Origin: an uncultured Bacteroidales bacterium
GTDB taxonomy: Bacteria; Bacteroidota; Bacteroidia; Bacteroidales; VadinHA17
DNA: 64,000 nt
Reading direction: 5' to 3'
Assembly: GCA_963791065.1 (NCBI GenBank)
Contig: CAWBQN010000020.1
Location: 44,347 to 108,346 of the forward strand
In this document: in pieces, positions 34,873 through 61,459 of the stretch
Numbering within the stretch: position 1 is the stretch's first letter
Layout: each line of letters starts with the position of its first letter
Notes under the pieces: model-generated
What the model saw: the letters and a program-made list of their open reading frames with translations, nothing else
What the model was told of the DNA's origin: nothing
Databases searched by the model: none
Made by a program: the position numbers and the translations under genes

Positions 34873-36303
34873 TTAATCTTTAATACTAACCCGATCTTCA
34901 AGATACTGTACCGAACCAACCTCGATAAATGAAAAACCTGAACCTGCAGAAAAGTTGCCTGCAAGTACCACAACGATATCGTCACCCTTAAGATTATGCG
35001 CTTTAGAAAGATTTTTTAAGGCGATATGAATAAACTCATCAATTGACTTTTTCCGTTCCTGTAAACTAGGATATACACCATAGGAAAGAGCCAGTTCACG
35101 CATTGTTCTCTCAGAATAGCACTGCGCCATTATCAGTTTTATGCCCCGGTAAGATGCCATATCCCTTATTGTCCTCCCTCCGACTGTGTCTGCAATTATT
35201 CCGCGTGCACCAATTCTGAAAGCAGTTTTTACAGCAACTTTTGCCAGGTATGCTGATACCTCCCCCGTAACGTTAAGATAAGGAATATTCATAAATTTCT
35301 CCTTATTCTTCTCGACCTCCAGAGCAACCTTAGTCATCGTTTTTACAGATTCCACCGGATATTTACCGTTTGCCGTTTCACCGCTGAGCATAATTGCATC
35401 GGTCTGGGAATAAATTGCACTGGCAATATCGCTTACTTCTGCTCTGGTTGGCCGCGGATTGTTTATCATCGAGTGAAGCATCTGAGTTGCAACAATTACC
35501 GGTTTACGGGTTATTATGCACTTTGTAATGATCATCTTCTGTATACCGGGAATTTGTTCATATGGAATTTCAATACCCAGGTCACCCCTGGCCACCATGA
35601 TACCATACACATTTTCAAGAATATCATCAATATTTTCGACACCTTCCTGATTTTCGATCTTTGCTATTATCTTAACAGGACTATTATATGAGTTCAGGAC
35701 CGCCTGAACATCAAGCACATCCTGCTTTGATCTGACAAATGAATGGGCAATAAAATCCACATCATTCTCTGTCGCCATCTTAATAAAAGCTCTGTCCTTA
35801 TCAGTGAGGGATGGAAGCATAATCTTAACACTTGGAATGTTAACACTTTTCCGTGATCCCAGAACCCCGTCATTTTCAATAGTACAGATCAATGCACTTC
35901 CATTTTTTCGTGATACCCTGAACTCCAGCTCACCATCATCCATAAGAATAAGCGACCCAAGAGGAATGTCTGAAGAAAAAGATGCATAAGAAACATAGAT
36001 TGCTTCCGGGGAACTCTTTTTAGTCGGGTCACCGATAATATTTATTGTTGTTCCTTTTTTAAGCGGAATGGGAGCATCACAGATCGTAGTGCGTATTTCA
36101 GGCCCCTTGGTATCAAGAAGAATTGCAATTTTGTCTGATACTTCCCTTGTATTTTTTATTATCCGGAGCGCACCTTCAATATCAAGGTGTGCAGAATTGA
36201 TCCTGATGACATCCATTCCGGCTTCATAAAGTTCCCTGATAAATCGCGGATCACAGTTTTTATCAGAAATGGTGGCAACAATCTTGGTCCTTTTGGAATC
36301 CAT
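34873..36303 (-). CDS. pyk: Pyruvate kinase
   Basis: 476 aa. KIVATI, RINSAH, DTKGPEIRT, MVARGDLGIEIP and MLSGETA motifs. Confidence 0.9.
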   Translation of the reverse strand: MDSKRTKIVATISDKNCDPRFIRELYEAGMDVIRINSAHLDIEGALRIIKNTREVSDKIAILLDTKGPEIRTTICDAPIPLKKGTTINIIGDPTKKSSPEAIYVSYASFSSDIPLGSLILMDDGELEFRVSRKNGSALICTIENDGVLGSRKSVNIPSVKIMLPSLTDKDRAFIKMATENDVDFIAHSFVRSKQDVLDVQAVLNSYNSPVKIIAKIENQEGVENIDDILENVYGIMVARGDLGIEIPYEQIPGIQKMIITKCIITRKPVIVATQMLHSMINNPRPTRAEVSDIASAIYSQTDAIMLSGETANGKYPVESVKTMTKVALEVEKNKEKFMNIPYLNVTGEVSAYLAKVAVKTAFRIGARGIIADTVGGRTIRDMASYRGIKLIMAQCYSERTMRELALSYGVYPSLQERKKSIDEFIHIALKNLSKAHNLKGDDIVVVLAGNFSAGSGFSFIEVGSVQYLEDRVSIKD

Positions 36304-36306
36304 AAG

Positions 36307-36744
36307 TTATTTCTTCTTTGAATGAATTATTTCGATAAGCGCCTCAAGAGCCAGCCGGTAACTATCCAGACCAAATCCGGATATGCTTCCTGCGCAGTTT
36401 CTTCCGATAAGACTTGTGTGACGAAACTCCTCCCTGGCCAGCAGATTAGTGAGATGAACTTCAACGACCGGTGAGGGTACCGCAGCTATTGCATCGGTAA
36501 TGGCAACTGAAGTATGAGTATAGCCGCCTGCATTAAGAATTATACCGTCGCACGAAAAACCAGTGTTTTGAATTTCACTGACGATCTCACCTTCTACGTT
36601 CGACTGATAATAATTGAAGATAATATCGGGATACCGCGATTCGAGAACCGGAAGATACTCTTCAAAAGAAGAATGTCCATACTTTTCAGGTTCTCTCCTG
36701 CCGAGGAGATTCAGATTTGGACCGTTGATAATCTGTACATGCAT
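36307..36744 (-). CDS. aroQ: Type II 3-dehydroquinate dehydratase
   Basis: 145 aa. INGPNLNLLGRREP, QSNVEGE, NAGGYTHTSVA and EVHLTN motifs. Confidence 0.9.
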   Translation of the reverse strand: MHVQIINGPNLNLLGRREPEKYGHSSFEEYLPVLESRYPDIIFNYYQSNVEGEIVSEIQNTGFSCDGIILNAGGYTHTSVAITDAIAAVPSPVVEVHLTNLLAREEFRHTSLIGRNCAGSISGFGLDSYRLALEALIEIIHSKKK

Positions 36745-37014
36745 CAGATTTTGAATTTATTATGGTAATAATATTTACCACAAGGGGACACTAGGTACAA
36801 CGCAAAGGATCATAATGGGAAACCCTGGCGCCAGCCGTGTTAAATTACAGTAAAAATAATTAAAAAATTGATGAGTACCACATTTTTCCTTTTTCCAGTT
36901 GATCCCGGAAATCTGCTTCCCGGCAGTCAGGCTGAATCTTGATGCCTTTGCACCTTGGCAGCATAATTCTTTTGACTACTTTTATCAAATTATCAGATGT
37001 TGGAATAAGAATAA

Positions 37015-37914
37015 ATGAGCTTAACCTGGAAACAGTCATTCAGAAATTTTGAAACCTATCTCAGGCTTGAGAAATCATTATCGGACAATAGTATCGAAGC
37101 CTATTTGAATGATGTTGGTAAACTTGAAAAATATTTTATAGAAACCGGAAAAGATATTTCACCAATAAATGTATCATATCCGGATCTTAAAGCTTTTCTG
37201 TCCTGGTATGGCATTAATAATAAAAACACACGTACACAATCAAGAGTGCTTTCGGGTATCAGAGCTTTTTTCAGATTCCTTCTGATAGAAGGAGAAATTG
37301 ATGAAAATCCATCATCACTAATAGAATCTCCAAAAATCGGACTTAAACTTCCCGAGGTGCTGTCAATAGGTGAGATAGACAGGATCATCGGTGAAATTGA
37401 TCTCAGCAAGCCGGAAGGACACAGGAATAAAGCAATTATTGAAACACTTTACGGGTGCGGATTGAGAGTCTCGGAACTGGTAAATCTCCATCTGACTGAC
37501 ATACATTATAATGAAGAATTTGTTGTTGTGACAGGAAAGGGTAATAAGCAGAGGCTTGTTCCGGTGAGCGGCAAAGCATTAAAGGAGATAGATCTTTATA
37601 AACAGGACAGGAACAGACTCCCTGTCATCAGGGATCAGAATATCCTATTTCTGAATCGACGCGGGGGCCACCTGACCCGTGCTATGATATTCACTATAAT
37701 CAAGGATCTGGCAGCAAAGGCAGGAATAAAAAAGAATATAAGCCCACACACTTTCAGACATTCCTTTGCTACTCATATGATCGAAGCAGGTGCCGATCTC
37801 CGGGCTGTTCAGGAAATGCTTGGACATGAGTCAATACTCACCACCGAGATCTATACGCATATCGACAGGAGTTACCTCCGCGATACTCTTATAATGTTCC
37901 ATCCGCGTGCATAG
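37015..37914 (+). CDS. xerD: Tyrosine site-specific recombinase XerD-like
   Basis: 299 aa. It has an N-terminal SAM-like core-binding domain and catalytic R...HTFRHSFATHM...GHESILTTEIYTH residues. Confidence 0.8.
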   Translation: MSLTWKQSFRNFETYLRLEKSLSDNSIEAYLNDVGKLEKYFIETGKDISPINVSYPDLKAFLSWYGINNKNTRTQSRVLSGIRAFFRFLLIEGEIDENPSSLIESPKIGLKLPEVLSIGEIDRIIGEIDLSKPEGHRNKAIIETLYGCGLRVSELVNLHLTDIHYNEEFVVVTGKGNKQRLVPVSGKALKEIDLYKQDRNRLPVIRDQNILFLNRRGGHLTRAMIFTIIKDLAAKAGIKKNISPHTFRHSFATHMIEAGADLRAVQEMLGHESILTTEIYTHIDRSYLRDTLIMFHPRA

Positions 37915-37940
37915 ACGCTAGTTATTGTATTGTGATTCAA

Positions 37941-38009
37941 TTCTTTGCGGTCATTATGCTAAATCTTTGCGTTCCGATAGCTATCGGAATTAGCGGTTAA
38001 TGGATTTCT
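37941..38009. repeat. TTTGCG motifs, an 18-nt perfect palindrome, and a GCGGTTAATGGATTTC copy
   Basis: ttcTTTGCGg...atcTTTGCGttccgatagctatcggaattaGCGGTTAATGGATTTC. The last 16 nt match 30887-30902 with one transition. Confidence 0.55.
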
Positions 38010-38013
38010 TTAT

Positions 38014-38021
38014 TAACTTTG
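38014..38021 (+). promoter_or_regulatory. Candidate -7 promoter box (TAacTTTG) for ppdK
   Basis: Exact TAnnTTTG match 54 nt upstream of the ppdK ATG at 38075. Confidence 0.35.
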
Positions 38022-38074
38022 CCGCTTATTTTGCAAAACCTATAATTTTATACTCATCTCAAATCAATAAAACT

Positions 38075-40801
38075 ATGTCAAACGTTAAAAGAGTCTACTC
38101 CTTCGGAAAGAAAGCTGCAGAAGGTAAAGCTGACATGAAAAACCTTCTCGGAGGTAAAGGTGCTAACCTTGCTGAAATGTGTTTGCTGGGTTTGCCAGTT
38201 CCTGCTGGTTTCACAATTACAACTGAGGCCTGTAATGAATATTATAAGAACAATTGTACTCTTCCGGAAGGATTGATGCCTGAGGTTTGGGCTGCTATGA
38301 AGAAGACTGAAGAAACAATGAATATGAAATTTGGAGATGCTCAGAATGCCTTACTTGTCTCGTGCCGTTCAGGAGCCAGGAGCTCAATGCCCGGAATGAT
38401 GGATACCGTCCTTAATATTGGTCTTTGTTCTGCAACAATCCCCGGATTTCTTAAAAAAACCAACAATCCCCGTTTTGTCTGGGATTCCTATCGTCGTTTA
38501 ATAATGATGTATGCCGACGTTGTTATGGAAAAAGCAGAAGGTATTGAACCTGGTGAAGGCAAAGGGATACGCAAGCTGCTCGATGAAAAACTTGATGAGT
38601 TTAAGAAACAGAAAAGATACAAATCTGATACTGAAATCAAAGCTGACGAGCTTAAAGAGCTTTCTGACGAATTTAAGAATATAGTTAAAAAAACGCTTGG
38701 AAAACCTTTCCCTGATGATGCTAGAGATCAGCTTGAGGGAGGTATTAAAGCTGTATTCAAGAGCTGGAATGGCAAGAAGGCCGTTTCCTACCGTCGCATA
38801 GAAGGGATACCTGATGATTGGGGAACAGCTGTGAGCGTACAATCAATGGTATTCGGTAATATGGGAGATTCATCAGCTACAGGCGTTGCTTTCACACGTA
38901 ACCCGGCAACCGGAGAGAACCTGTTCTATGGTGAGTGGCTCGTGAACGCCCAGGGGGAAGACGTAGTTGCCGGCATCCGCACACCGAGCCCTCTTAATGA
39001 CGATACAAAAAATGATCAGAACCAGCATCTTCACAGTATGCAGGAAGCAATGCCTGGCACTTACAAGGAGCTTTGGGATATCCGCAATATTCTTGAGAAA
39101 TCATTCCACGATATGCTGGATATTGAATTCACTATCCAGGAAGGAACTCTTTACATGCTGCAATGCCGCACAGGCAAAAGAACCGGTACAGCAGCCCTTA
39201 ACATGGCTATGGATATGCTTCACGAGAAACTGATTGATGAAAAAACTGTTGTTCTGCGTGTCGATCCCGCACAGCTCGATGAGCTACTGCACCCAATCTG
39301 TGATCCGAATGCTGAGAAAAAGGTAAAGGCGGTAGTAAGAGGTTTGCCGGCAGGACCAGGAGCAGCAGTCGGAAAAGTTGTCTTCAACGCTGAAGATGCT
39401 GTTGCATGGTTCCGTAAGGGTGAAAAAGTCATTCTTGTACGTGAAGAAACTAACCCTGAAGATGTTGAAGGTATGCGTGCAGCAGAAGGTATACTTACCG
39501 CCCGGGGAGGTATGACATCGCATGCAGCTCTGGTTGCACGCGGATGGGGAAAATGCTGTATAGTCGGTGCAGGTGCCCTTCATGTCGACGCTTCAAAAAA
39601 GATTGCAAAAATAACGGGATCTGATATAGTTATTAAAGAGGGTGATGTCCTTACTCTGAACGGTACAAAAGGAAATGTATATACCGGCGCCATAAACCTT
39701 ATGGATGCAACAGAAAATCCCCGCTTCAAGGAATTCATGATCATTGTTGATAAATATCGTAAAATGGGGGTCCGTACCAACGCTGAAACACCTGAAGATG
39801 CAATAATTGCAAGAAACTATGGTGCTGAGGGGATCGGCCTTTTCCGTACCGAGCATATGTTTTACGGCAAAGGATCAGAGACTCCGTTATTCCTTCTTCG
39901 TAAAATGATCCTGAGCGCAAATGAAACAGAGCGCCGGAAAGCTCTTAATGAACTTTTCGCACATGTCAAAAAAGATATGAAAGAGACTATGTCTGCAATG
40001 GATGGTCTGCCTGTCACATTCAGGCTGCTTGATCCTCCTCTTCATGAATTTGTACCCCAGGGTGCTGATAAACAGGAAGAGCTCGCAAAATCTCTGGGCA
40101 TTAAAAAAGAAGATGTTGCCAAACGAGGTGAGGCTCTGCATGAATCAAACCCGATGATGGGACATCGTGGAGTACGTCTTGGTATCACTTACCCTGAAAT
40201 TTCTGAAATGCAGGTACGCGCAATTTTCGAATCAGCACTGGAACTCATAAAAGAAGGGAAGAAACCACATCCTGAAATAATGGTTCCGGTTACCGGTGAG
40301 GTTAACGAACTCGACTTCACAAAAAAAGTTGTTGACAGAGTATATGACGAAGTCTGCAAAAAATTTGGTGTAAAAAATATTGAGTATAAATACGGTACAA
40401 TGATTGAGATCCCGCGCGCATGTCTTCTCTCCGATCGAATGGCAAAAAGCGCAGAATTTTTCTCATTCGGGACAAACGACCTTACACAGATGACCTTCGG
40501 CTTCAGCCGTGATGATACAGGCGGATTCCTGCATGATTATCTTGACAAGAAGATCCTGACGGCTGATCCATTCCAGACTATTGATCAGGATGGCGTTGGC
40601 CAGCTTATTAAAATGTCGGTTGAGAAAGGGCGCGCTACGAGGCCAAACCTCAAGGTTGGCATCTGCGGCGAACAGGGTGGTGATCCGGCTTCAGTTGAAT
40701 TTTGTTTCAAAACAGGTTTGACTTATGTAAGCTGTTCTCCTTTCAGAGTGCCAATTGCACGGCTTGCAGCTGCCCAGGCATCGATAAGATTCGGTAAATA
40801 G
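38075..40801 (+). CDS. ppdK: Pyruvate, phosphate dikinase
   Basis: The start is placed at MSNVKRVYSFGKK. GGKGANLAEM, the catalytic-His loop GGMTSHAALVARG, and C-terminal PEP-utilising TIM-barrel motifs (FFSFGTNDLTQ, CGEQGGDP) are present. The track ORF start at 38000 is an upstream extension. Confidence 0.92.
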   Translation: MSNVKRVYSFGKKAAEGKADMKNLLGGKGANLAEMCLLGLPVPAGFTITTEACNEYYKNNCTLPEGLMPEVWAAMKKTEETMNMKFGDAQNALLVSCRSGARSSMPGMMDTVLNIGLCSATIPGFLKKTNNPRFVWDSYRRLIMMYADVVMEKAEGIEPGEGKGIRKLLDEKLDEFKKQKRYKSDTEIKADELKELSDEFKNIVKKTLGKPFPDDARDQLEGGIKAVFKSWNGKKAVSYRRIEGIPDDWGTAVSVQSMVFGNMGDSSATGVAFTRNPATGENLFYGEWLVNAQGEDVVAGIRTPSPLNDDTKNDQNQHLHSMQEAMPGTYKELWDIRNILEKSFHDMLDIEFTIQEGTLYMLQCRTGKRTGTAALNMAMDMLHEKLIDEKTVVLRVDPAQLDELLHPICDPNAEKKVKAVVRGLPAGPGAAVGKVVFNAEDAVAWFRKGEKVILVREETNPEDVEGMRAAEGILTARGGMTSHAALVARGWGKCCIVGAGALHVDASKKIAKITGSDIVIKEGDVLTLNGTKGNVYTGAINLMDATENPRFKEFMIIVDKYRKMGVRTNAETPEDAIIARNYGAEGIGLFRTEHMFYGKGSETPLFLLRKMILSANETERRKALNELFAHVKKDMKETMSAMDGLPVTFRLLDPPLHEFVPQGADKQEELAKSLGIKKEDVAKRGEALHESNPMMGHRGVRLGITYPEISEMQVRAIFESALELIKEGKKPHPEIMVPVTGEVNELDFTKKVVDRVYDEVCKKFGVKNIEYKYGTMIEIPRACLLSDRMAKSAEFFSFGTNDLTQMTFGFSRDDTGGFLHDYLDKKILTADPFQTIDQDGVGQLIKMSVEKGRATRPNLKVGICGEQGGDPASVEFCFKTGLTYVSCSPFRVPIARLAAAQASIRFGK

Positions 40802-40823
40802 CCCGATAACATTTATTTATAGT

Positions 40824-40851
40824 AAAGGGTTCCGCTTTTGCGAAACCCTTT
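40824..40851 (+). terminator. Intrinsic terminator after ppdK
   Basis: aaagggttccgc-tttt-gcgaaacccttt hairpin with one mismatch, followed by the T-rich ttccttttc. Confidence 0.65.
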
Positions 40852-41055
40852 TCCTTTTCATGGCAAAATGATCTAACCTGGTAGAAAACTAGTAAATCCT
40901 TCTAACTTGCATATGACCCTTAGGAAGTAATATACCCTATGCACTTCCTCTAGAATTATTAAAAAAAATGAACTAAATTTGAATTCATTAAGTCGAAGTT
41001 AAATTAACCATGTAATAGTAACTTGCATTTGAAGGTATAATTTTATTATTGTAAA

Positions 41056-42675
41056 ATGTTTGAACCCAGCGAATTATCAGTTTATGGCATTGAGGATATA
41101 AAAGAGATTATCTATAATCCATCCTATAATATCTTATTTGCGGAGGAGACAAAACCCGGGCTCGATTCATATGAAAAGGGAACTATTACCCGGTCAGGAG
41201 CAGTTTCTGTTGATACCGGGATATTTACGGGCCGTTCACCCAATGACAAATATGTAGTTCTCGACAACACGACAAGAGATACAGTCTGGTGGAAATCGGA
41301 CAAGGGGAAAGTATCTGATAACAAACCACTTTCAGTTGAGATATGGAACCATTGCAAAAACCTTTCAGCGAAACAACTTTCAGGGAAAAGACTGTTTGTG
41401 GTAGACTGTTTTTGCGGTGCAAATAAAAATTCGCGGTTAAGAGTGAGATTTGTACTTGAGGTTGCCTGGCAGGCTCATTTTGTAAAAAATATGTTCATAA
41501 GACCTGAACCTGATGAACTGATTGACTTCAAACCCGATTTTGTGGTGCTTAATGCTTCCAAGGCAAAAAATCCCGACTGGAAACAGCAGGGTCTCAATTC
41601 TGAAAATTTTATTCTATTTAATCTTACCGAAGGCATGTCGGTCATCGGAGGAACATGGTATGGCGGCGAGATGAAAAAGGGGATCTTCTCTGTTATGAAC
41701 TATTTCCTGCCACTCAAGGGAATAGCCTCAATGCATTGCTCTGCGAATGTTGGTAAAAATGGTGATACTGCTATCTTCTTCGGACTTTCAGGAACAGGAA
41801 AAACGACACTCTCCGTCGATCCTGAAAGAGCTCTGATCGGCGATGATGAACACGGCTGGGACGATGAAGGTGTTTTCAATCTTGAAGGAGGATGCTATGC
41901 GAAATGTATCAAGCTGAGCAGGAATAATGAACCTGATATCTATTGTGCTATAAAACGTGATGCCCTTTTGGAGAATCTTGTGGTTTTACCTGACGGGACA
42001 ATTGATTTTAACAGCAGTTCAAAAACTGAAAATACCCGGGTTTCATATCCAATTTACCACATTCATAATATAGTAAAACCTGTTTCAAAGGCAGGTCATG
42101 CTAAAAAAGTTATCTTCCTCACTGCAGATGCATTCGGTGTTCTGCCTCCTGTAAGCCGTCTGACTGAGGAGCAGACAAGGTATTATTTCCTTAGCGGATA
42201 TACGGCAAAGGTTGCAGGAACAGAGCGGGGAATTATTGAACCAGTTCCCTCATTCTCTGCTTGTTTTGGTGCCGCATTTCTGATGCTCGATCCTATTATA
42301 TATGCTAACGAGCTTACCAGAAAAATGAAAATGCAAAGTGCTGAGGCCTGGTTGGTAAATACGGGCTGGTTGGGAGGCCCGTATGGAATAGGTAATCGTA
42401 TTGCTCTTCCTGTTACCCGAATGATAATAAATGCGATTCTTGATGGCTCACTTACCGAGAGTGAATTTGTAAACCTTCCTGTTTTCAATTTAAGTATCCC
42501 TACAGGAATCAAAGGAATTGATGAGAATATTCTGGACCCCGGAAAAGCATGGGAATCTCAGTCCAGATGGCGTGTTGCTGCAACTGATCTGGCTCTGAAA
42601 TTCATTAATAACTTCAGTAAGTTTACAGTAAACAAAGAGACAGCTAAACTGGTGAGCTCCGGTCCTGTTATCTGA
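41056..42675 (+). CDS. pckA: Phosphoenolpyruvate carboxykinase (ATP)
   Basis: 539 aa. RSPNDKY, the kinase-1a loop [19 protein letters not shown], and GGCYAK motifs. Confidence 0.92.
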
Positions 42676-53280: not shown

Positions 53281-53994
53281 TTATCTGGCCATCACATTAA
53301 TGTCATTCAGAAGTGAATCCCTGAACGATTTCCCAACGGGAATGCTTTTTACAGATCCTCCTACCATCAGGTCGAGTGTGTTCTCCTTAATTGTCTGTAT
53401 CCTGCTTTTGTTGATTATGAATGACCTGTGTACTCTGATAAAAACTCCTGAAGGCAGCTGATTTTCGATCGCTTTCATTGTAAAATGAATAGTAAATCTG
53501 TCATCATTGGTATTCAGAGTGACATAGTTTTCAAGAGCTTCGATATATATGATCTCCGTGAGCTTCAGTTTTACCAGTGAGGATCCCTTTTTAATGAAAA
53601 TTTCCTCATCACCGCTGTTAGTTACTTCTTTCCGAGCAAAATACCTTATTGTTTTATCAATAGCTTTACAAAACCGTCCATATGTCACCGGTTTAAGCAG
53701 GTAATCGACTACATTGAAGTCAAATGCTTTCAAGGCAAATTCCTCTGCAGACGATACAATAATGATATTCGGAGGGAAATCGAGACTCCGGATAAAATCA
53801 AATCCATTCATTTCCGGCATCTGGATATCAAGTATAACAAGGTCAATATCCTGTCGTTTTGTTAAAACATCCCTGGCTGCAACTGAATCACTGAATACAC
53901 CAACCAGGTTAAGGGAAGTGGATTTACTTGCATACCCTTCAAGGATTTTGCAGGTTAAAAGGTCATCGTCGACAATAATGCAATTCATGTGCAA
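53281..53994 (-). CDS. LytTR-family response regulator
   Basis: The receiver domain (IIVDDD...DLVILDIQMPEMNG...KP) is followed by a C-terminal LytTR DNA-binding domain (IYIEALENYV...FIRVHRSFIIN). Confidence 0.85.
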   Translation of the reverse strand: MHMNCIIVDDDLLTCKILEGYASKSTSLNLVGVFSDSVAARDVLTKRQDIDLVILDIQMPEMNGFDFIRSLDFPPNIIIVSSAEEFALKAFDFNVVDYLLKPVTYGRFCKAIDKTIRYFARKEVTNSGDEEIFIKKGSSLVKLKLTEIIYIEALENYVTLNTNDDRFTIHFTMKAIENQLPSGVFIRVHRSFIINKSRIQTIKENTLDLMVGGSVKSIPVGKSFRDSLLNDINVMAR

Positions 53995-54023
53995 ATTGTT
54001 GTTTTGGCAAAGTATTTCTCGAT

Positions 54024-54031
54024 CAAAATTA
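54024..54031 (-). promoter_or_regulatory. Candidate -7 promoter box (TAatTTTG on the minus strand) for the LytTR regulator gene
   Basis: The reverse complement reads TAATTTTG, 30 nt upstream of the ATG at 53994. Confidence 0.3.
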
Positions 54032-54269
54032 GTAAATAATTTTCAAGATATTTTAAGATTAATACTAAAGTTGAAAATCTTTTATCATTTTGTTCGAAAA
54101 TATTTCTTAACTCAATCAGTTACAATACCTAACATATTCTAATAATAATTCAGAATTAACTTGACTCTGGAATTATTTATTGCATAGATAAGCAATTTTT
54201 AAATACCGGCCATCATAGTCAGGGCTCGCAAGTGCAATGCACGATTCGCTTGTACACAGCAGATGACAC

Positions 54270-54707
54270 CTAACGACTGCTAAATCCTTTAAAGAAATAA
54301 TCTGGTTTTCCGGTTACATCTTCATACTCCGGCATCATGATAAGATTAAACGGAATATCCATGACCAGTGAAATTTTTTCACCATGCGCAAGGATATCGT
54401 CATCATCTTCTTCATAATACCAGTTGATTACAAGCTGTTTATTCGTCAATTTGAGATTTGAGATTTTCCTCAGAAGAGCAATCAATACTAATGAATTGGC
54501 GCTATTTAAGTACTCCAGATAAAAACAAATGCAAGTCAGATCAGCAGGATTAATAATATATAAATCAATCCATTTCTCTACCTGTGAATAAAATCCGGCT
54601 GCATTTTTGGCCATGGATCTTCCTTTTATTCTTATGACACCGTTTGGATCGAGTACAACCTCAGGGGTACTTTCAGTAGCCTCAATATTCTTCCCCGTTA
54701 ATAACAT
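54270..54707 (-). CDS. DUF1987 (SiaC-like) domain protein
   Basis: 145 aa. TPEVVLDPNGVIRIKGRSMAKNAAGFY...FYLEYLNSANS...INWYYEEDDDD matches the DUF1987/SiaC family pattern. Confidence 0.65.
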   Translation of the reverse strand: MLLTGKNIEATESTPEVVLDPNGVIRIKGRSMAKNAAGFYSQVEKWIDLYIINPADLTCICFYLEYLNSANSLVLIALLRKISNLKLTNKQLVINWYYEEDDDDILAHGEKISLVMDIPFNLIMMPEYEDVTGKPDYFFKGFSSR

Positions 54708-54909: not shown

Positions 54910-55326
54910 TTACAGATATTTTTTGTATTCCTCAGGAACATCAAAATATTTATCATAATTCTCAACATCGGGACCGATCTTCTCTTCAACAATATTTTCC
55001 CTTAGCTTATAAGTACATTTTTCTCCCGCTATGCCAGAAAAGTAAATATTATATTCCTTTCCATTCTCATCAATCATTATGATCCTAACCAGGTGCTTAT
55101 ACTTGGTACTATTTAACTGTGAGTGGCAGATAGGGCAATTATAGATATATTCTTCCCCTTCTTTAAGTTGAAAGGAAGAATGTGTGGTTACTGAATAGTT
55201 CCCAATCTCAGGATTCAGGAATACCAATCCTCTCTTGGAACTGTGAAGCTTTGAAGCAGCAAGGACTATAGAAGTCTTCACATTAAGATGGCCCCTGCAA
55301 ATTTTACAAATATATTCTACTGCCAT
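54910..55326 (-). CDS. Hypothetical protein with two CxxC knuckles (putative zinc ribbon)
   Basis: 138 aa. CKIC at residues 7-10 and CPIC at residues 64-67. No other motif recognised. It is a monocistronic-looking gene flanked by intergenic regions of about 200 nt. Confidence 0.4.
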   Translation of the reverse strand: MAVEYICKICRGHLNVKTSIVLAASKLHSSKRGLVFLNPEIGNYSVTTHSSFQLKEGEEYIYNCPICHSQLNSTKYKHLVRIIMIDENGKEYNIYFSGIAGEKCTYKLRENIVEEKIGPDVENYDKYFDVPEEYKKYL

Positions 55327-55535
55327 GGTTCACCTCCTGTTTAATAATTTGTTTAATAATTCAATCAGCAACGTCCTTAACAAGGTACGAAATATTTTCT
55401 TTTCATCCAATTTTTTAAGGCTTATTTAACTGTAAAACATGAAAGCCTGTTTAACCGTGACTGAATCTCCTGATTTGTCGGAAAATTGCGAGCTTTTACA
55501 TGAAAAATACCTACTTTTAATTAAAATTTTTATTG

Positions 55536-55877
55536 ATGCACGAACTATCAATAGCCAGGAACATTATTGATATAGCTTCTGAGCAGGCGAAAATAAATAA
55601 TCTTACCGAAGTCAATGAAATTGAAATTGAGGTCGGGTCATTATCCGGAGTTGAAATTGAAGCGCTTGAATTTGTATTGGAGATAGTAACAAAAAAGACG
55701 ATACTTGAAAATTCCAGAACAATACTTACGCTGATTCCTGGAATGGCCCGGTGTTTGATCTGCTCCAATGAATTCGGGACTAACAGTTTTATTGCACAAT
55801 GCCCTGAATGCAAAGGATTTAATTTTCAGATTATTCAGGGGCAGGAATTAAGAGTAAAATCGTTGAATGTTTATTAA
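55536..55877 (+). CDS. hypA: Hydrogenase nickel-insertion protein HypA
   Basis: The MHELSIA N-terminus (Ni site) plus the CLIC...CPEC zinc motif; 113 aa. Confidence 0.9.
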   Translation: MHELSIARNIIDIASEQAKINNLTEVNEIEIEVGSLSGVEIEALEFVLEIVTKKTILENSRTILTLIPGMARCLICSNEFGTNSFIAQCPECKGFNFQIIQGQELRVKSLNVY

Positions 55878-55948: not shown

Positions 55949-56758
55949 ATGTGTGACACCTGTGGTTGTGGTCAAAGCAGTAATTCATATTCAATAATAA
56001 AACCCGGTGAAGAAATTCATCATCAAAAGGAGGATGGCCTTCAGTACAGTCATCATCATGACCATGATAACGAAAACGGACATCATTCTCATAAAATCAT
56101 TATTGAACAGGATATTCTTCAAAAGAATAACCTCATTGCTGAAAGGAACAGGGGTTATCTTGTCGCAAAAAATATTTTAACATTAAATTTGGTCAGTTCA
56201 CCCGGATCAGGAAAGACAAGTCTTATCGAAAGAACAATTAAAGATCTGGGCAAGGAACTGGATTTTTTTGTAATCGAAGGTGATCAGCAAACATCGCTTG
56301 ATGCCGAACGTATTCAAAATGCAGGCTGTCCGGTTGTTCAGATAAATACCGGGAATGGATGCCATCTGGATGCAGAAATGATAAACAGGGCCATTACAAA
56401 ACTTAAGATCACTGAACGTTCAATATTGATCATAGAAAATGTCGGTAATCTGGTGTGTCCGTCGTTGTTTGATCTTGGGGAATCATTCCGGGTTGTAATT
56501 ATCAGTGTTCCGGAGGGAGAAGACAAGCCACTCAAGTATCCGACAATGTTTCATACTTCAGATCTGTGTCTTATCAATAAGACAGATTTACTGCCATACG
56601 TTGATTTTAATGTTAGTAAGTGTAAAGAGTATGCATTAAGAATAAATCATCATTTACAGTTTTTTGATATGTCAGCAAAATGCGGAGAAGGACTTGAAAA
56701 CTGGTACAACTGGTTAAGAGAGGGTTGCAGAAAACTCCAATTCTCAAACCAGGAATAA
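55949..56758 (+). CDS. hypB: Hydrogenase nickel-incorporation GTPase HypB
   Basis: N-terminal MCDTCGCG (CxxCGC high-affinity metal site), a His-rich stretch (HHHDHDNENGHHSH), P-loop SSPGSGKTSL, ENVGNLVCP and NKTDL. Confidence 0.92.
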   Translation: MCDTCGCGQSSNSYSIIKPGEEIHHQKEDGLQYSHHHDHDNENGHHSHKIIIEQDILQKNNLIAERNRGYLVAKNILTLNLVSSPGSGKTSLIERTIKDLGKELDFFVIEGDQQTSLDAERIQNAGCPVVQINTGNGCHLDAEMINRAITKLKITERSILIIENVGNLVCPSLFDLGESFRVVIISVPEGEDKPLKYPTMFHTSDLCLINKTDLLPYVDFNVSKCKEYALRINHHLQFFDMSAKCGEGLENWYNWLREGCRKLQFSNQE

Positions 56759-58486
56759 TCCTTCAACCTGCGCAATTAACTGCTGGTCTGTAAAGTGCCT
56801 TCCCTTGATTGCCGATGATGGGCAGGCAGCGACGCATACCCCACAACTTTTACATAAAGCATTGATAATATGACTTTGCTTTTTATCTTCATCGAATTCT
56901 ATGGCACTATAGGGACAAAGCTGGTTGCAGAACCGGCAACCTGAACATAATTCCTCAATTACTTCCGAATAAACAGCATCTACTTCTATCTTCCCTTTTG
57001 CAATTCGTGCCAGAATTCGTGCCGCTGCTGCTCTTGCCTGGGCAACAGAATCAGGAATATCCTTTGGAGCAACACAGGTCCCTGCAATAAATATTCCGTC
57101 AGTTGTTGTTGCTACAGGTTCGAGCTTTGGATGACTCTCTATGAACCACCCATCCTTGTCCTGACTGATGTTCACCAGGCGGGCTATTTCGTTGGAATCT
57201 TCGCGGGCTTCCATCCCTACCATCAGTACTACAAGGTCGGCCGGGATTTCAATAAGTTCACCTGAAAGTTTCTCGTTGACTTCAATAAGCATTTCACAGT
57301 CATCTTTCGGAGTTGCTTTATGAATTACCGGTCTGTCACCTTTTTCATACATCAGGAACAGTGTTTTCGCTTCGGACGACTTGCGGTAGAAATCTTCATG
57401 ACCCTTTCCGAAGGCATGCATATCAATATAGATATCTGATATATAACAATCGGGATTTGCAGATTTGATCTCGGAAGCGTATTTTAATGCTGTCATGCAA
57501 CAAACCCTTGAACAGTAGGAATGAAATTCCTTATTCCGGCTTCCCACACAGTGAATAATAGCAACATATTTGGGGATCTTACCCTCCTTTGTTTCAATAC
57601 TTCCTGAACGAATCATCTTTTCCAGCTCGAAAGATGTAATGACATTGGGCAATTTTCCGTATCCGTAGTGAACAATACGTGATGCATCGAATTCCTTATA
57701 TCCTGTGCAAACAACAATATTTCCAATCTTCACATTTATCTTCCAGCCACTATCTGAATTTTTGTCTGACGTTTGTATCCTGGCTTTGAAATTGCCAATA
57801 AACCCCGTTACTTCAGTTACTTTTGATTCAAGGTATACTACAACTTTTCTGTTTTCCTTGATACGCACTATTTTTTCAGTAATAAGGTCGCGTGCAGAAT
57901 ACAGATAAGGTGCCGTAAGATCAAGACGCGCAAGGTTACCTCCGAGATGGTCATCTTTCTCAACCAGGTAGACAATATTACCTGCATCGGCCAGTTCTAG
58001 AGCAGCAGTCATACCGGTAATGCCACCCCCGATTACAAGTACATTTGGACACATATCAACCGACATGTTTTCAAGCGGCTCATGGAGCTCAACACGGCAA
58101 ATGGCTGCACAGACCAGAGCTTTGGCTTTTTCAGTTGCCGCTACCGTGTCAGTATGCACCCAGCTGCATTGCTCACGTATATTAGCCATCTCGAGCAGAT
58201 ACTGATTCAGTCCGGCTGACCTCAAAGCGTTACGAAAAGTCCGCTCATGCATATTCGGACTGCAGGCAGCGACGACCACACGGTCAAGCTTGTGCTCCCT
58301 GATATCCTGTGTGATCATTTCCTGACCCGGATTGGAGCACATATATTTATAGCTTTTGGCAAGAACAACGTTCGGCAGACTGGATGCGAATCCGGCAACT
58401 GCTTCCACATCAACAACTTTTGCTATGTTAGTCCCGCACCAGCATATATACACTCCTATTCTTGGTAATGTTTTTTTATCAGTCAT
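56744..58486 (-). CDS. HdrA/QmoA-B-like FAD/FeS oxidoreductase, paralog 2 (Cys-rich N-terminal domain and C-terminal 2x[4Fe-4S] ferredoxin domain; no inserted ferredoxin)
   Basis: N-terminus RIGVYICWCGTNIA...YMCSNPG...VAACSP...REQCSWVH; FAD fold VIGGGITGMTAALELA; HdrA signature HCVGSRNKEFHSYCSRVCCM; C-terminal CSGCRFCNQLCP and CKSCGVCVAACP. Confidence 0.8.
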   Translation of the reverse strand: MTDKKTLPRIGVYICWCGTNIAKVVDVEAVAGFASSLPNVVLAKSYKYMCSNPGQEMITQDIREHKLDRVVVAACSPNMHERTFRNALRSAGLNQYLLEMANIREQCSWVHTDTVAATEKAKALVCAAICRVELHEPLENMSVDMCPNVLVIGGGITGMTAALELADAGNIVYLVEKDDHLGGNLARLDLTAPYLYSARDLITEKIVRIKENRKVVVYLESKVTEVTGFIGNFKARIQTSDKNSDSGWKINVKIGNIVVCTGYKEFDASRIVHYGYGKLPNVITSFELEKMIRSGSIETKEGKIPKYVAIIHCVGSRNKEFHSYCSRVCCMTALKYASEIKSANPDCYISDIYIDMHAFGKGHEDFYRKSSEAKTLFLMYEKGDRPVIHKATPKDDCEMLIEVNEKLSGELIEIPADLVVLMVGMEAREDSNEIARLVNISQDKDGWFIESHPKLEPVATTTDGIFIAGTCVAPKDIPDSVAQARAAAARILARIAKGKIEVDAVYSEVIEELCSGCRFCNQLCPYSAIEFDEDKKQSHIINALCKSCGVCVAACPSSAIKGRHFTDQQLIAQVEGLFLV

Positions 58487-58494
58487 TGCTCTTA

Positions 58495-59646
58495 TTAATT
58501 CATTTTATATGATTTGTTCTTTTTTCCCTCAATCTGTACGGATTTTTTTAATTCCGCGAAATAAATGGCGAAAGGTCTGTAGGCAAGGTGAGACCATTTG
58601 GAGAACGGAACTTCTACACAAAGCATCGGAACAAGCACTGCCATATGAATTATGTACATATAATATGTTGCAGCCGGCATACCTCCGATTCTGAATATAT
58701 GCAAAAGTATCCCTGAAACAGTTGTTGCCATTAAAAGAATGATAAAAATCCAGTCACTGAAATGTGAAAATTTGAATTTCTGTCCTGCTTTCCTGATCCG
58801 TCCCCAGCTGAAAAAGATCAGTCCGATAAATAAGCCAAAGGTTGCATAATAACCAAGTATCCTTTGAGGTTCATACCAGGAATAGGTTTTATCAGTCTGG
58901 AACCATTTCAGGTTCCCAACGATGAGGACAAACATCAGGACATAACCCGACATCAGCATCCAGTGAAAGAACCAGTAATTTCTGTCTTTGCATTTGCTGA
59001 ATTGTTTCTGGGTGACGAAATGCACAATAACCTGATAGAAATTAACCACATACATCCTGAAAGGTATCTTTAAGGATTTATCCTTCAGTATCGTCAGATA
59101 CCACATCCTTATTATATTTGAAATCAGGAAGCATGCTATAGAAATCAGCATTATATGTGCCCCAATATTCACTGTTTCTACCGGGAACATTTCGTTTACT
59201 TTCACTCCGCCATCGGGTGTAAGCGAGGTCACTATTCCATGAGGATTGAAAACAGAGAACAGCAAAGTTATTAAAACGCCTATAATCATGATAGCGCCGA
59301 ATTCCCACCAGTGTGTGGTATAAAATTTCTTTGACAATCCTGTCCAGTCATAAACTGACGTCAGGTACCTCCTTAAAATCATCATAGTGTCACCCGGATC
59401 AGCATCCCTGGGGCATAAATCTGAGCAGTCGCCGCAATAATAGCATAACCAGGGTTCAAGTGTGGTCTCTAACTTCTTTTCCAGTCCCATCTGCAGCAGC
59501 CTGATAGGTTTACGCGGGAACCTGTTAAATTCGTCAGCATGCGGACAAACAGCCGAACAATCACCGCATTGATAGCACAGTTGTATATTTTCCTTGCCAA
59601 AGCGATCCAATGCATTTATAAATCCGGGATTAACTCTGATTGCCAT
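58495..59646 (-). CDS. QmoC-like fusion: HdrC-type 2x[4Fe-4S] N-terminal domain plus NarI/HdrE-type multi-helix (putative di-heme b) membrane domain
   Basis: The start is placed at MAIRVNPGF (the GTG at 59697 would overlap the upstream gene by 41 nt). CYQCGDCSAVCP and CYYCGDCSDLCP are present. At least 5 hydrophobic helices carry conserved-looking His (AHIML, VIVHFV, FFHWML, LLHIF, IIHMAV), and the terminal motif is PFSKWSHLAYRP. Confidence 0.7.
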   Translation of the reverse strand: MAIRVNPGFINALDRFGKENIQLCYQCGDCSAVCPHADEFNRFPRKPIRLLQMGLEKKLETTLEPWLCYYCGDCSDLCPRDADPGDTMMILRRYLTSVYDWTGLSKKFYTTHWWEFGAIMIIGVLITLLFSVFNPHGIVTSLTPDGGVKVNEMFPVETVNIGAHIMLISIACFLISNIIRMWYLTILKDKSLKIPFRMYVVNFYQVIVHFVTQKQFSKCKDRNYWFFHWMLMSGYVLMFVLIVGNLKWFQTDKTYSWYEPQRILGYYATFGLFIGLIFFSWGRIRKAGQKFKFSHFSDWIFIILLMATTVSGILLHIFRIGGMPAATYYMYIIHMAVLVPMLCVEVPFSKWSHLAYRPFAIYFAELKKSVQIEGKKNKSYKMN

Positions 59647-59656
59647 AGTAAAAATT

Positions 59657-61459
59657 TTAAATTGTTTGAATACTCTTGGCTTTTGCTTCAATTTCACTGA
59701 GCGGAATGCTGCTCATATGTCCGATGCCTCTTTTGGTTGTGAGACTTTTAAGTACGCCAGCTGCGACAGCAGAAGCCTGAGCCACTGTATCCGGTATGTC
59801 TTTTGGGCCCTGGCACATCCCAGCTACATATATACCTCCTCTTTCAGTATCTGTCGGGCTGCCGTTATAATTCAATTCTGAAAACCATCCGTCCGAATCT
59901 CTGCTGACATCCAGCATTTTGATCAGATCACCTGTTCCGGAGGAAGGAATAAGACCGACTGCAAGAACTACCATATCAACCTCAAATTCAGCTAATCTGT
60001 CATTAATGATATCCTCGCCGCGTACAACCATCTGGTCATTATGCATTGTAACTTTAGCCGAATGTCCGCGAATTATTAAAGTACCTTCCTCCTTGATGCG
60101 ATCTGCAAATTCCTCATAACCTTTTCCGAAAGCCCGCATATCGATATAAAACTCATATACAGTTACATCAGGGATCTTCTCTCTGATCAGATGGGCAAAT
60201 TTCAGGGAATACATACAGCAGACCCTGGAGCAGTAGGAATTGTACTTTTTATTCCTTGATCCTACACAGTGGATAATGGCGACACTTTTAGGCGGTATGC
60301 CCTCCGGCAGAAAAACCCATTCATCCTTTTCTGTTTTTTTATTAAATCGTTTGGTTTTAGTGACAATTTTTCCACCCGTGGTTCCGGAAGCATTCGTCAG
60401 ACGCTCAAATTCGAGAGAGGTCAGTACGTTAGGATATACGCCATAACCATACTGCTCTATTTTGCTGACATCGAGCAGTTCATATCCTATTGCGAGAATG
60501 ATATTTCCCACCTCAATATCGATAAAATGATCGGTTTCATTCAGGTTAATGCATTCCTTAGGACATTTTTTAACACAAACGCCACATTTTTTTCCACCGG
60601 AAAGGATATAGGTACATTTTGTCTCATCTACTAGGTATGCATTTGGCACCGCCTGTGGAAAAGGGATATAAATTGCTTTCCTCAGTGATATTCCTGCATC
60701 GAATTCACTCTCAACTTTAACAGGACATACTTCTACGCACTGATTACATGCAACACATGATTTGACATCAACGAACCTTGCACTTTGTTTAATCTTCACA
60801 TGGTATGCTCCGGGCTTACCCGTAACAGCTGCCACCTTCGACTTGGTCAGCAGTTGGATCATTTCATGCTGTCCGACTGAAACCATTTTAGGAGTGAGGA
60901 TGCAGGCAGCGCAATCCAATGTAGGGAACGTTTTATCAAACATGGCCATATGACCGCCAATAGTGCCGGTTTGCTCAATGAGATAAACCTGTTTGCCTGC
61001 ATTTGCTATCTCGAGGGCAGCCTGTATTCCGGCTATACCCCCTCCGATAATAAGTGTCGAGTGATGGACCGGATTTCCAACCGGGATAGCAGCAAGCGGG
61101 AAAGGAACAGCCATTGTTGCACAGGCTATTATAGCTTTAGCCCGATCCATCGCATTTTCTCCTCTTGCACCATGTTCCATGAAAGAAGCCAGTCGTATTT
61201 CTTCCGTGCTCGCTCCTGCCAATGCCATGGCTTTTGTAAAAGCCGGTTTAAAATAACCAGGCATATCTCCTGCAATAACTATCCTTCCCAGGTTGTTAGT
61301 TTTGATCAGATCGCTAAGGATATTCACATCAAGCTGAGGTTTTGTACCCAGGATCTGCACAGTGTCAACATTCGGAAGATTTGCAGCATACTTCGCTATG
61401 GAATCAAGATTAAGATCCGCGTTCACTTCGATCTGGCAGAAAAAGACTCCTATTCGCAT
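59657..61459 (-). CDS. HdrA/QmoA-B-like FAD/FeS oxidoreductase, paralog 1 (Cys-poor N-terminal domain, inserted 2x[4Fe-4S] ferredoxin; no C-terminal ferredoxin)
   Basis: FAD fold LIIGGGIAGIQAALEIA, TFPTLDCAACILTPKM, inserted CVACNQCVEVCP and CGVCVKKCPKEC, and HdrA signature HCVGSRNKKYNSYCSRVCCM. The N-terminal 130 aa align to the HdrA N-domain but lack its cysteines. Confidence 0.8.
   Translation of the reverse strand: MRIGVFFCQIEVNADLNLDSIAKYAANLPNVDTVQILGTKPQLDVNILSDLIKTNNLGRIVIAGDMPGYFKPAFTKAMALAGASTEEIRLASFMEHGARGENAMDRAKAIIACATMAVPFPLAAIPVGNPVHHSTLIIGGGIAGIQAALEIANAGKQVYLIEQTGTIGGHMAMFDKTFPTLDCAACILTPKMVSVGQHEMIQLLTKSKVAAVTGKPGAYHVKIKQSARFVDVKSCVACNQCVEVCPVKVESEFDAGISLRKAIYIPFPQAVPNAYLVDETKCTYILSGGKKCGVCVKKCPKECINLNETDHFIDIEVGNIILAIGYELLDVSKIEQYGYGVYPNVLTSLEFERLTNASGTTGGKIVTKTKRFNKKTEKDEWVFLPEGIPPKSVAIIHCVGSRNKKYNSYCSRVCCMYSLKFAHLIREKIPDVTVYEFYIDMRAFGKGYEEFADRIKEEGTLIIRGHSAKVTMHNDQMVVRGEDIINDRLAEFEVDMVVLAVGLIPSSGTGDLIKMLDVSRDSDGWFSELNYNGSPTDTERGGIYVAGMCQGPKDIPDTVAQASAVAAGVLKSLTTKRGIGHMSSIPLSEIEAKAKSIQTI

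Follow-up and report, generated by a model that had tools for sequence, protein, structure and literature searches.

In the methanogen HdrABC-MvhAGD complex (PDB 5ODC, 7BKB, 8RVU), HdrA is a homodimer whose chains each carry all four domains, and in the solved dimer the cluster of the N-terminal domain (N-domain) has a ligand, Cys197, that comes from the other protomer (PMC9012536). The low-potential branch leads from this cluster to the inserted ferredoxin domain and the high-potential branch from the TrxR-domain cluster to HdrC and HdrB (PMC9012536; PMC13518236). Here we describe two HdrA paralogs, P1 and P2, encoded together with a QmoC-like protein and an Mvh-type [NiFe] hydrogenase in a 64,000-nucleotide stretch of DNA from an uncultured Bacteroidales bacterium (VadinHA17; GenBank assembly GCA_963791065.1, contig CAWBQN010000020.1), referred to below as the window. 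P1 and P2 carry complementary subsets of the HdrA cofactor sites, and we propose, with moderate confidence, that they are the QmoA-like and QmoB-like subunits of a membrane-bound complex, MvhADG-HdrA(A)-HdrA(B)-QmoC, in which they would form an obligate heterodimer that bifurcates electrons from H2 to menaquinone and ferredoxin.

Unequal HdrA pairs have been described before. In the tandem or fused HdrA of ANME-1 and in Moorella MetFV-HdrABC-MvhD, one copy holds the N-domain together with a C-terminal ferredoxin but without Cys197, the other holds Cys197 and has no functional N-domain or C-terminal ferredoxin, and a symmetry-breaking heterodimer was inferred (Chadwick 2022, PMC9012536). Canonical (type I) QmoABC occurs in sulfate reducers and green sulfur bacteria; the complex purified from Desulfovibrio has A and B subunits, two flavin adenine dinucleotides (FAD) and two hemes b reducible by quinols, and both what QmoB does and the identity of Qmo's "third partner" have been open since 2003-2012 (Ramos 2012, PMC3333476). 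Qmo assemblies arose at least twice, the "type II" QmoAB proteins being nearer to HdrA and found irrespective of whether Dsr/Apr is present (Neukirchen et al. 2023, PMC10504309), where the function of type II Qmo is stated to be unknown. In the Archaeoglobi, the gene cluster of Ca. Methanoglobus combines the NiFe Mvh hydrogenase, two HdrA homologues (one of them QmoB according to DiSCo) and an HdrC-QmoC protein; the cluster is highly expressed and was proposed to bifurcate electrons from H2 to menaquinone and ferredoxin.

The kind of complex (type II Qmo; Mvh, two HdrA and QmoC), the logic of complementary heterodimers (Chadwick 2022) and the proposed function are already known, and the heterodimer idea is well supported but not new. 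A description of a Bacteroidales Mvh-HdrA-QmoC complex was not found in the searchable literature. Our additions are modest: a rule of A-type and B-type chains that holds for 134 of 134 genes, canonical Qmo included, a vestigial N-domain in the A-type, swapping of Mvh and Flx modules, and the spread of the system in Bacteroidales.

Cofactor Sites of the Two HdrA Paralogs

According to the open reading frames (ORFs) and their Pfam/NCBIfam annotation, the minus strand from 63949 to 56744 is a single tight operon with the order mvh(D)GA-hdrA(A)-qmoC-hdrA(B) (Table 1). The methanogen complex is the best match for both paralogs (41-46% identity to HdrA, E 1e-132 to 1e-152) and shares with the window operon the MvhAGD input module, FAD, the TrxR-domain cluster, ferredoxin domains and an HdrC-like domain. 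Whereas each methanogen chain is complete, P1 and P2 each hold a subset of the four domains, and they scored 516 and 601 bits, respectively, against NCBIfam HdrA/HdrA2 (cut-off 1100). Ligand columns were called on a MAFFT alignment in which HdrA was rebuilt from its alignment outputs to P1 and P2.

P1 (aa 2-568) aligned with residues 5-560 of HdrA 5ODC_A as a single block (E 5e-132) that spans the inserted ferredoxin domain and stops short of the C-terminal ferredoxin. The ligand columns of its N-domain read C/I/G/D, with the motifs FFCQIE (aa 6-11), ILGTKP (aa 36-41) and IAGDMP (aa 62-67); one of the four cluster cysteines (Cys8) remains, and none does in more distant A-types. The Cys194/197 columns read C/C, the equivalents being Cys183 and Cys186 of TFPTLDCAAC (aa 177-186). 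All eight cysteines of the inserted ferredoxin are present, in the motifs CVACNQCVEVCP (aa 235-246) and CGVCVKKCPKEC (aa 292-303), and the C-terminal ferredoxin is absent.

P2 matched HdrA 8RVU/8RVV over aa 7-240 and 246-576 (E 1e-152), as two blocks that omit HdrA residues ~245-320, that is, the inserted ferredoxin, and cover the C-terminal one. Its N-domain columns read C/C/C/C (Cys 15, 17, 50 and 75, in YICWCG at aa 13-18, MCSNPG at aa 49-54 and AACSP at aa 73-77). The Cys194/197 columns read S/D, and within LDLTAPYLYSA (aa 188-198) the residues APYLYSA stand where DCxxC is expected. The inserted ferredoxin is absent, and the C-terminal 2x[4Fe-4S] ferredoxin (aa ~505-565) has all eight cysteines, with CSGCRFCNQLCP at aa 514-525 and CKSCGVCVAACP at aa 545-556; the protein ends directly past it, without a fused MvhD domain. 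Both paralogs keep GxGxxG and the four cysteines of the TrxR-domain cluster, arranged as C-x11-C-x3-CC; HCVGSRNKKYNSYCSRVCCM (P1, aa 397-416) and HCVGSRNKEFHSYCSRVCCM (P2, aa 312-331) were among the motifs checked.

The motifs that the initial annotation had quoted for the two paralogs are all in the translations, and the complementarity that it had read from them was borne out by the HdrA alignments and the ligand columns. Replacement cysteines at shifted positions, sought in the P1 N-domain and at the P2 DCxxC site, were found in no orthologue. The split was invariant in all orthologues, at 11 Bacteroidales/Bacteroidota genome loci (down to 51-54% identity) and at metagenome loci, and both hdrA genes are under purifying selection, with omega of 0.03-0.16 over all domains, a range that rules out a decaying duplicate. 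Because of this invariance and this selection, the complementary pattern is neither chance nor decay. The cysteine-less N-domain of P1 is relaxed yet still constrained (omega 0.07-0.16 vs 0.03-0.04 for the P1 core and 0.03-0.05 for the cores of the pair). A look-up of the exact P1 sequence matched no record, and close relatives served instead; in the AlphaFold2 model of P1 alone, which was used solely for the confidence and topology of the N-domain, this domain was the best-predicted part, with a predicted local distance difference test (pLDDT) score of 72-90 and a beta-alpha-beta topology.

The QmoC-Like Subunit

The gene between the two paralogs, on which the initial annotation had not commented, encodes a QmoC homologue and is key to the finding. 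The protein matched NCBIfam qmoC (NF038018) with E 3e-60 and 204.5 bits over model positions 5-360 of 360, the equivalog cut-off being 300, which was reached by one of ten representatives (P0223). Its N-terminus (~90-95 aa) matched HdrC 7BKB_C (E 1e-13) as an HdrC-like 2x[4Fe-4S] domain with Cys 41, 44, 47, 51, 85, 88, 91 and 95 (ORF numbering), and the remainder is a membrane domain of about six helices by hydropathy, with conserved His 245, 351 and 370; His 226, 312 and 333 are additionally conserved in Bacteroidota. The ORF finder placed the start at GTG 59697 (400 aa), which gives an overlap of 41 nt with the end of P1. In most homologues the first residue is the Met of MAIRVNPG, corresponding to ATG 59646 (383 aa, no overlap), which, judging from these homologues, is likely the true start in place of GTG 59697.

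An HMMER scan of cluster representatives with the QmoC-like protein returned 166 clusters at E<1e-30, and 4292 proteins scored E<=1e-40 for the QmoC-like protein of class II (see below). Otherwise similar window-type operons hold two very different subtypes of the subunit, sharing 79-98% and only 41-46% identity, respectively, with the window protein. The divergent subtype was seen in L011 (3061-4221), L023 (2933-4108), L084, L086, L090 (3445-4653) and L093, where the flanking P1, P2 and MvhA still show 70-87% identity; the membrane subunit seems to have been exchanged independently of the flavoproteins.

Comparison With Qmo and Other Known Systems

On sequence grounds, the HdrA pair together with the QmoC-like protein is a Qmo architecture, the standard layout of the Qmo family. 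Canonical Qmo, like the window, joins two HdrA-like flavoproteins to a protein in which an HdrC-like 2x[4Fe-4S] domain is fused to a membrane domain, of the cytochrome b type in QmoC and putatively heme-binding in the window protein, and has FAD and the TrxR-domain cluster in both chains. QmoA resembles P1 in having the Cys197 equivalent and the inserted ferredoxin without an N-domain cluster or a C-terminal ferredoxin, and QmoB resembles P2 in having the Cys-rich N-domain and the C-terminal 2x[4Fe-4S] ferredoxin without DCxxC/Cys197 or an inserted ferredoxin. At the level of cofactor sites, the QmoA/QmoB pairs of the Archaeoglobus and Dissulfurispira loci are therefore split identically, the very finding that the initial annotation had named as reducing the window pair to plain Qmo architecture. 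Its idea of a heterodimer of half-degenerate paralogs holds as far as complementarity and co-occurrence (58 of 58 pairs, see below) are concerned; the special nature that it had ascribed to the pair does not, since Qmo has the same partition.

The differences from canonical Qmo are real but secondary. QmoA lacks any N-domain, whereas P1 has a cysteine-less one, and it has CxxxC (CPPYC) in place of the DCxxC of P1; QmoB carries MvhD fused C-terminally, whereas MvhD of the window type is a separate gene; the gene order is A-B-C against A-C-B; and canonical Qmo is linked to sat-aprBA (AprAB partner), whereas the window operon is linked to mvhDGA and hyp genes. P1 and P2 are only 27-36% identical to QmoA/B and 36% to each other, P1 scoring higher with QmoA and P2 with QmoB. 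P2 and QmoB share a five-residue deletion in the NASGPTGGK loop. At the same loop (NASGTTGGK in P1), this deletion of B-types and QmoB is replaced in P1 by a lysine-rich insertion of ~13-17 residues (TKTKRFNKKTEKDEWVF; aa 367-383, window 60311-60361, minus strand) behind the loop, which also occurs in other Bacteroidota A-types and is absent from methanogen HdrA and QmoA.

In a neighbor-joining tree on 323 shared columns with 60 bootstraps, a method liable to long-branch attraction on divergent sequences, canonical QmoA and QmoB formed one clade (60/60) apart from P1 and P2, the Bacteroidota A-types formed a clade in 60/60 and the B-types in 59/60 replicates, and monophyly of all A-types or of all B-types was recovered 0 times. 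The partition probably arose independently in canonical Qmo and in the type II lineage; these clades are consistent with the published origin of Qmo assemblies at least twice.

The window system has the features of type II Qmo: P1 and P2 are nearer to HdrA than to type I Qmo, no tblastn match to Sat, AprA or AprB was obtained in the window, and MvhA and MvhG are co-clustered. It thereby resembles type II Qmo and the Ca. Methanoglobus cluster, by their published descriptions, in gene inventory, in A/B subunits nearer to HdrA than to canonical Qmo and in occurring without Apr or Dsr; those cases are archaeal thermophiles, whereas the present one belongs to mesophilic Bacteroidales, and complementary cofactor sites were not analyzed in the accessible papers on them. 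P1 and P2 also show complementarity of the type described by Chadwick, with the N-domain cluster and Cys197 on separate copies and the C-terminal ferredoxin complementary. The ANME-1 and Moorella systems differ in being soluble and in having HdrBC or other partners and not QmoC; their Cys197 copy lacks the whole N-domain, of which P1 keeps a cysteine-less version, and some have the halves fused into one polypeptide. In the methanogen complex the high-potential branch ends in HdrB (CCG clusters, heterodisulfide), whereas no HdrB/CCG protein was found by ORF and Pfam annotation in the window operon or its relatives, where the HdrC-like domain is fused to the membrane domain.

Survey of QmoC-Linked Loci

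Canonical sat-aprBA-qmoABC loci of Archaeoglobus sulfaticallidus (L013) and of a Dissulfurispira metagenome-assembled genome (L014) were reached through P0223, which led to named QmoC, and a metagenome scan with a 13-sequence QmoC-like alignment gave 80 further loci, at least 592 stretches being confirmed. In total 94 loci were annotated by BLAST, and ligand columns were called for each HdrA-like ORF of at least 380 aa. This yielded 68 A-type genes, 66 B-type genes and six unclassifiable ones, all six cut by contig ends. Among the 134 intact HdrA-like genes of the 94 loci, no full four-domain HdrA was found next to QmoC: Cys197 always went with the inserted ferredoxin on one chain, and the N-domain cysteines always went with the C-terminal ferredoxin on the other. 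Both types were present in 58 loci (one contig fetched twice), that is, in all loci complete enough to judge. This strict rule over ~60 loci offers comparative support for an HdrA functional unit assembled across two protomers.

The loci fell into five classes. Class I is the window type, mvhD-G-A-A-qmoC-B. Class II, A-qmoC-B-mvhD-G-A-hycI, comprises ~22 loci at 51-57% identity, which by their source names are also Bacteroidales/Bacteroidota. Class III, mvhD-A-B-qmoC, has no hydrogenase nearby; class IV is canonical qmoABC with sat/apr; and class V is A-qmoC-B-flxDCBA (L012), to which L011 adds a second B-type gene with flxDCBA. Orthologues of P1 and P2 (600 and 580 aa) are conserved at 51-99% identity in more than 60 loci, and 600-aa P1 homologues at 79-92% identity make up more than 120 clusters (clustering at 90% identity). 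In Bacteroidales of soils, peat, lakes and sediments, the genes of thousands of near-identical operons bear no annotation beyond "HdrA family," "ferredoxin" or "4Fe-4S protein," and because these annotations are generic, H2-dependent reduction of ferredoxin and menaquinone may be overlooked in metabolic reconstructions.

In the class V locus L012 (4516-12407), from a single-amplified genome of a marine Bacteroidota, the A/QmoC/B core is followed by flpD, two Fer4 proteins and an NAD_binding_1 plus DHODB_Fe-S protein, a FlxDCBA-like NADH module, and no hydrogenase was seen; in L011 (6890-11719) an Mvh-linked core is followed by a second B-type hdrA with its own flxDCBA. A flxDCBA-like set is joined to the core in L012 and to the second module in L011, as in the NADH-dependent FlxABCD-HdrABC of Desulfovibrio, which differs in using HdrBC and DsrC and not QmoC and quinone; the window has Mvh and not a Flx module. 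Because of the L011 and L012 arrangements, in which input modules swap and the core is kept, we suggest that the Mvh and Flx modules are interchangeable; these swaps and the extra B-type genes beside alternative input modules in L011 and L090 fit a B-type subunit that acts as input adaptor and an A-type and QmoC that act as output core.

Further arrangements were observed. Class III loci (L026, L031-L035, L052, L062, L064, L072, L074-L077 and L092) have an A-type of 432-490 aa without N-domain and a B-type of 644-720 aa with a one-cluster remnant of the inserted ferredoxin. In L032 (35-10143), where mvhD, A-type, B-type and QmoC-like genes stand together and no hydrogenase was seen, these are preceded by genes for a sulfur transporter of the YeeE type, for three rhodaneses and two DsrE-like proteins, and for a Crp regulator, which hints at a sulfur-trafficking partner. 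L023 (1190-14334) carries a window-type A-QmoC-B module and, back to back with it, one of class II together with mvhDGA. L090 (8379-13597) has, besides a window-type operon, a further B-type hdrA (679 aa) that lies apart on the opposite strand, accompanied by an mvhD-G-A set of its own but by no A-type or QmoC.

Proposed Complex and Electron Path

If the P1:P2 dimer is built like the HdrA homodimer of methanogens, it would retain only one of the two functional units that are intertwined there. Because Cys197 acts in trans, each HdrA functional unit spans two protomers, the arm of one and the core and exit of the other, and the joint travel of sites in QmoC-linked pairs is what would be expected if one unit had been kept and the other discarded. 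P2 would be the mobile input arm, made up of the cysteines for the N-domain [4Fe-4S] cluster and of the C-terminal 2x[4Fe-4S] ferredoxin, which docks MvhD; that the B-type is the MvhD-binding chain is suggested by canonical QmoB, which carries a fused MvhD. P1 would supply Cys186 as trans ligand of the P2 N-domain cluster, the FAD next to that cluster, and the inserted ferredoxin domain. Since P1 carries the Cys197 equivalent and P2 the cysteines of the N-domain, the hybrid cluster could form only in a P1:P2 dimer.

In this scheme, H2 would be oxidized at the NiFe site of MvhA, and electrons would pass through the MvhG clusters to the [2Fe-2S] cluster of MvhD and enter via the P2 arm to the bifurcating FAD, most likely that of P1. 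The low-potential electron would move over the hybrid P2/P1 N-domain cluster into P1's inserted ferredoxin domain, the putative exit to soluble ferredoxin, and the high-potential electron from the TrxR-domain cluster over the HdrC-like clusters of QmoC to its predicted hemes b and to menaquinone. As there is no HdrB/CCG protein in the operon, quinone and not a disulfide is likely the high-potential acceptor, and, QmoC being the quinone-interacting subunit of the purified Desulfovibrio complex, flow from H2 to menaquinone and ferredoxin is most likely. The net reaction would be 2 H2 + MK + 2 Fd(ox) -> MKH2 + 2 Fd(red), where MK is menaquinone and Fd ferredoxin. It is exergonic, the mean acceptor potential of about -260 mV lying above that of H2 (-414 mV). 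The initial annotation had held that asymmetric wiring is what a bifurcating site with two exits needs; the symmetric homodimer already has two exits per FAD, and the heterodimer would simply leave one functional unit of the intertwined two, in keeping with the single QmoC and the single hydrogenase. The hypAB, hycI and hypCDEF genes that adjoin the operon speak for the hydrogenase-driven complex.

Several points weigh against this proposal. The complex, like type II Qmo in general, is predicted from sequence, and mvhD of the window operon lies outside the window, its presence being deduced from L003 and L001. With FAD and TrxR-cluster motifs in both paralogs, either flavin could be the bifurcating one, and the second FAD may or may not have a role. 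Across the wider QmoC-like family no more than three His are invariant, and bis-heme ligation is thus predicted only. The AlphaFold2 model of P1 (30-sequence alignment, 79-92% identity) reached a mean pLDDT of 56 and a predicted template modeling score of 0.46. Transfer of electrons from H2 to menaquinone is exergonic by itself, so that bifurcation is not needed thermodynamically, and Rex-like control would also fit a redox-balancing, H2-evolving role.

It is this last role that the same heterodimer would have if it ran in reverse, confurcating electrons from reduced ferredoxin and menaquinol to H2 as reductant disposal in a fermenter. We regard this as unlikely: the mean donor potential (about -260 mV) is ~150 mV above H+/H2, H2 evolution would need H2 at or below ~1 Pa, the drain of menaquinol would compete with fumarate respiration, and group 3c Mvh enzymes oxidize H2 in their characterized context, although enzymes of flavin-based bifurcation can in principle run either way, relatives have a Rex-type redox regulator upstream, the window encodes a fermentative, fumarate-type metabolism (phosphoenolpyruvate carboxykinase, PEPCK; pyruvate phosphate dikinase; pyruvate kinase; citrate lyase) and confurcation is the favored model for canonical QmoABC (PMC3333476).

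A non-bifurcating H2:menaquinone oxidoreductase, in which the HdrA pair would be a mere wire from Mvh to QmoC and no soluble ferredoxin would be reduced, appears improbable. Such an enzyme would suffice for the H2-to-menaquinone step that is exergonic alone, the operon holds no ferredoxin gene (ORF list and Pfam), and type II Qmo is explicitly said to have no known function (PMC10504309). However, the inserted 2x[4Fe-4S] domain, which is surface-exposed, is strictly conserved in 58 of 58 pairs along with Cys197 and the N-domain cluster; these form the low-potential branch in HdrA and would be superfluous for a simple wire. In addition, both FAD sites are conserved, and the Flx variant, fed by NADH (-320 mV), would have no advantage over ordinary NADH:quinone reductases if it made no second, low-potential product. 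That the paralogs are unpaired, as separate homodimers or complexes or with one as a decaying duplicate, is highly improbable even though both carry FAD and TrxR-domain cluster motifs, each being a possible flavoprotein alone, and lone B-type genes occur beside mvhDGA or flxDCBA (L090, L011), since the fifth-position trans ligand and any low-potential exit would be missing from a P2 homodimer and the input arm from a P1 homodimer, co-occurrence around QmoC is strict, all domains are under purifying selection, the 600-aa and 580-aa orthologues are conserved throughout, and both lone B-type loci also hold the A-QmoC-B core.

A bifurcating, H2-oxidizing P1:P2 complex would hard-wire a hydrogenase (in relatives, an NADH module) to a Qmo-type core, in which bifurcation or confurcation is testable without the complication of adenosine 5'-phosphosulfate reductase. 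We tentatively entertain a wider generalization, possible but somewhat doubtful at present: that the A/B partition is a universal rule for QmoC-linked HdrA pairs, having arisen at least two times, and that the Bacteroidales complex is a widespread bifurcating enzyme for menaquinone and ferredoxin driven by H2 or, with Flx, by NADH. If this were true, the HdrA homodimer would consist of two cross-protomer functional units readily subfunctionalized into one, abundant Bacteroidota "fermenters" would gain an unrecognized route from H2 to low-potential ferredoxin, and the Bacteroidales complex would offer a tractable model for Qmo's third partner, which has long been unknown.

Operon and Genomic Neighborhood

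The features of the operon and of the converging hyp genes are listed in Table 1. The MvhA-like protein has CGVCxxxH near its N-terminus (aa 59-69) and DPCFSCATH near its C-terminus (aa 453-461). The window ends 51 bp upstream of mvhG, and the operon extends past this end; in L003 (94.5% nucleotide identity to the window) and L001 it is opened by mvhD (FlpD, a separate gene of 141 aa), which is preceded by hycI, a Rex-like regulator and hypFCDE.

Table 1. Coordinates of the operon features and adjoining genes in the window.
Feature	Position	Strand	Basis
MvhG/VhuG-like [NiFe]-hydrogenase small subunit, 327 aa	62966..63949	-	Pfam Oxidored_q6; NCBIfam VhuG, 224 bits
MvhA/VhuA-like group-3c-type [NiFe]-hydrogenase large subunit, 487 aa	61506..62969	-	Pfam NiFeSe_Hases; NCBIfam VhuA, 388 bits
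HdrA paralog 1 (P1), A-type/QmoA-like, 600 aa	59657..61459	-	Alignment to HdrA, motifs
P1 vestigial N-terminal (MvhD-like) domain, aa 1-125	61085..61459	-	Alignment to HdrA, omega, AlphaFold2
P1 TFPTLDCAAC motif	60902..60931	-	Cys186 equivalent to HdrA Cys197, predicted trans-protomer ligand of the partner N-domain cluster
P1 inserted ferredoxin domain, aa ~228-310, 2x4 Cys	60530..60778	-	Pfam, alignment
QmoC-like subunit	58495..59646	-	NCBIfam qmoC, HdrC match, alignments, hydropathy
HdrA paralog 2 (P2), B-type/QmoB-like, 580 aa	56744..58486	-	Alignment to HdrA, motifs
HypB nickel-insertion GTPase, converging on the operon end	55949..56758	+	Pfam cobW/HypB; syntenic in L001-L005
HypA nickel metallochaperone	55533..55877	+	Pfam HypA, E 3e-31

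Beyond the hyp genes, a 138-aa ORF (54910-55326, minus strand) with two CxxC pairs (CKIC...CPIC) and without a Pfam match shows synteny to the operon at six loci (L001/L006, L002, L003, L004, L011), in L011 between the B-type hdrA and the second B-type hdrA, and may be an accessory protein of the system. Also downstream of the hyp genes, on the minus strand (span 53281-54707), lie two genes, one (53281-53994) for a response regulator of the LytTR type and one (54270-54707) for a regulatory phosphoprotein of the SiaC family; the counterpart neighborhood in L001 has a LytTR regulator with a His_kinase sensor. Farther away, at 34873-42675 and 4031-5587, the window encodes pyruvate kinase, pyruvate phosphate dikinase, an ATP-dependent PEPCK, the citrate lyase alpha subunit and a cargo protein of the type IX secretion system (CHU_C), a gene set that fits an anaerobic Bacteroidota with a PEPCK/fumarate-type, menaquinone-using metabolism.

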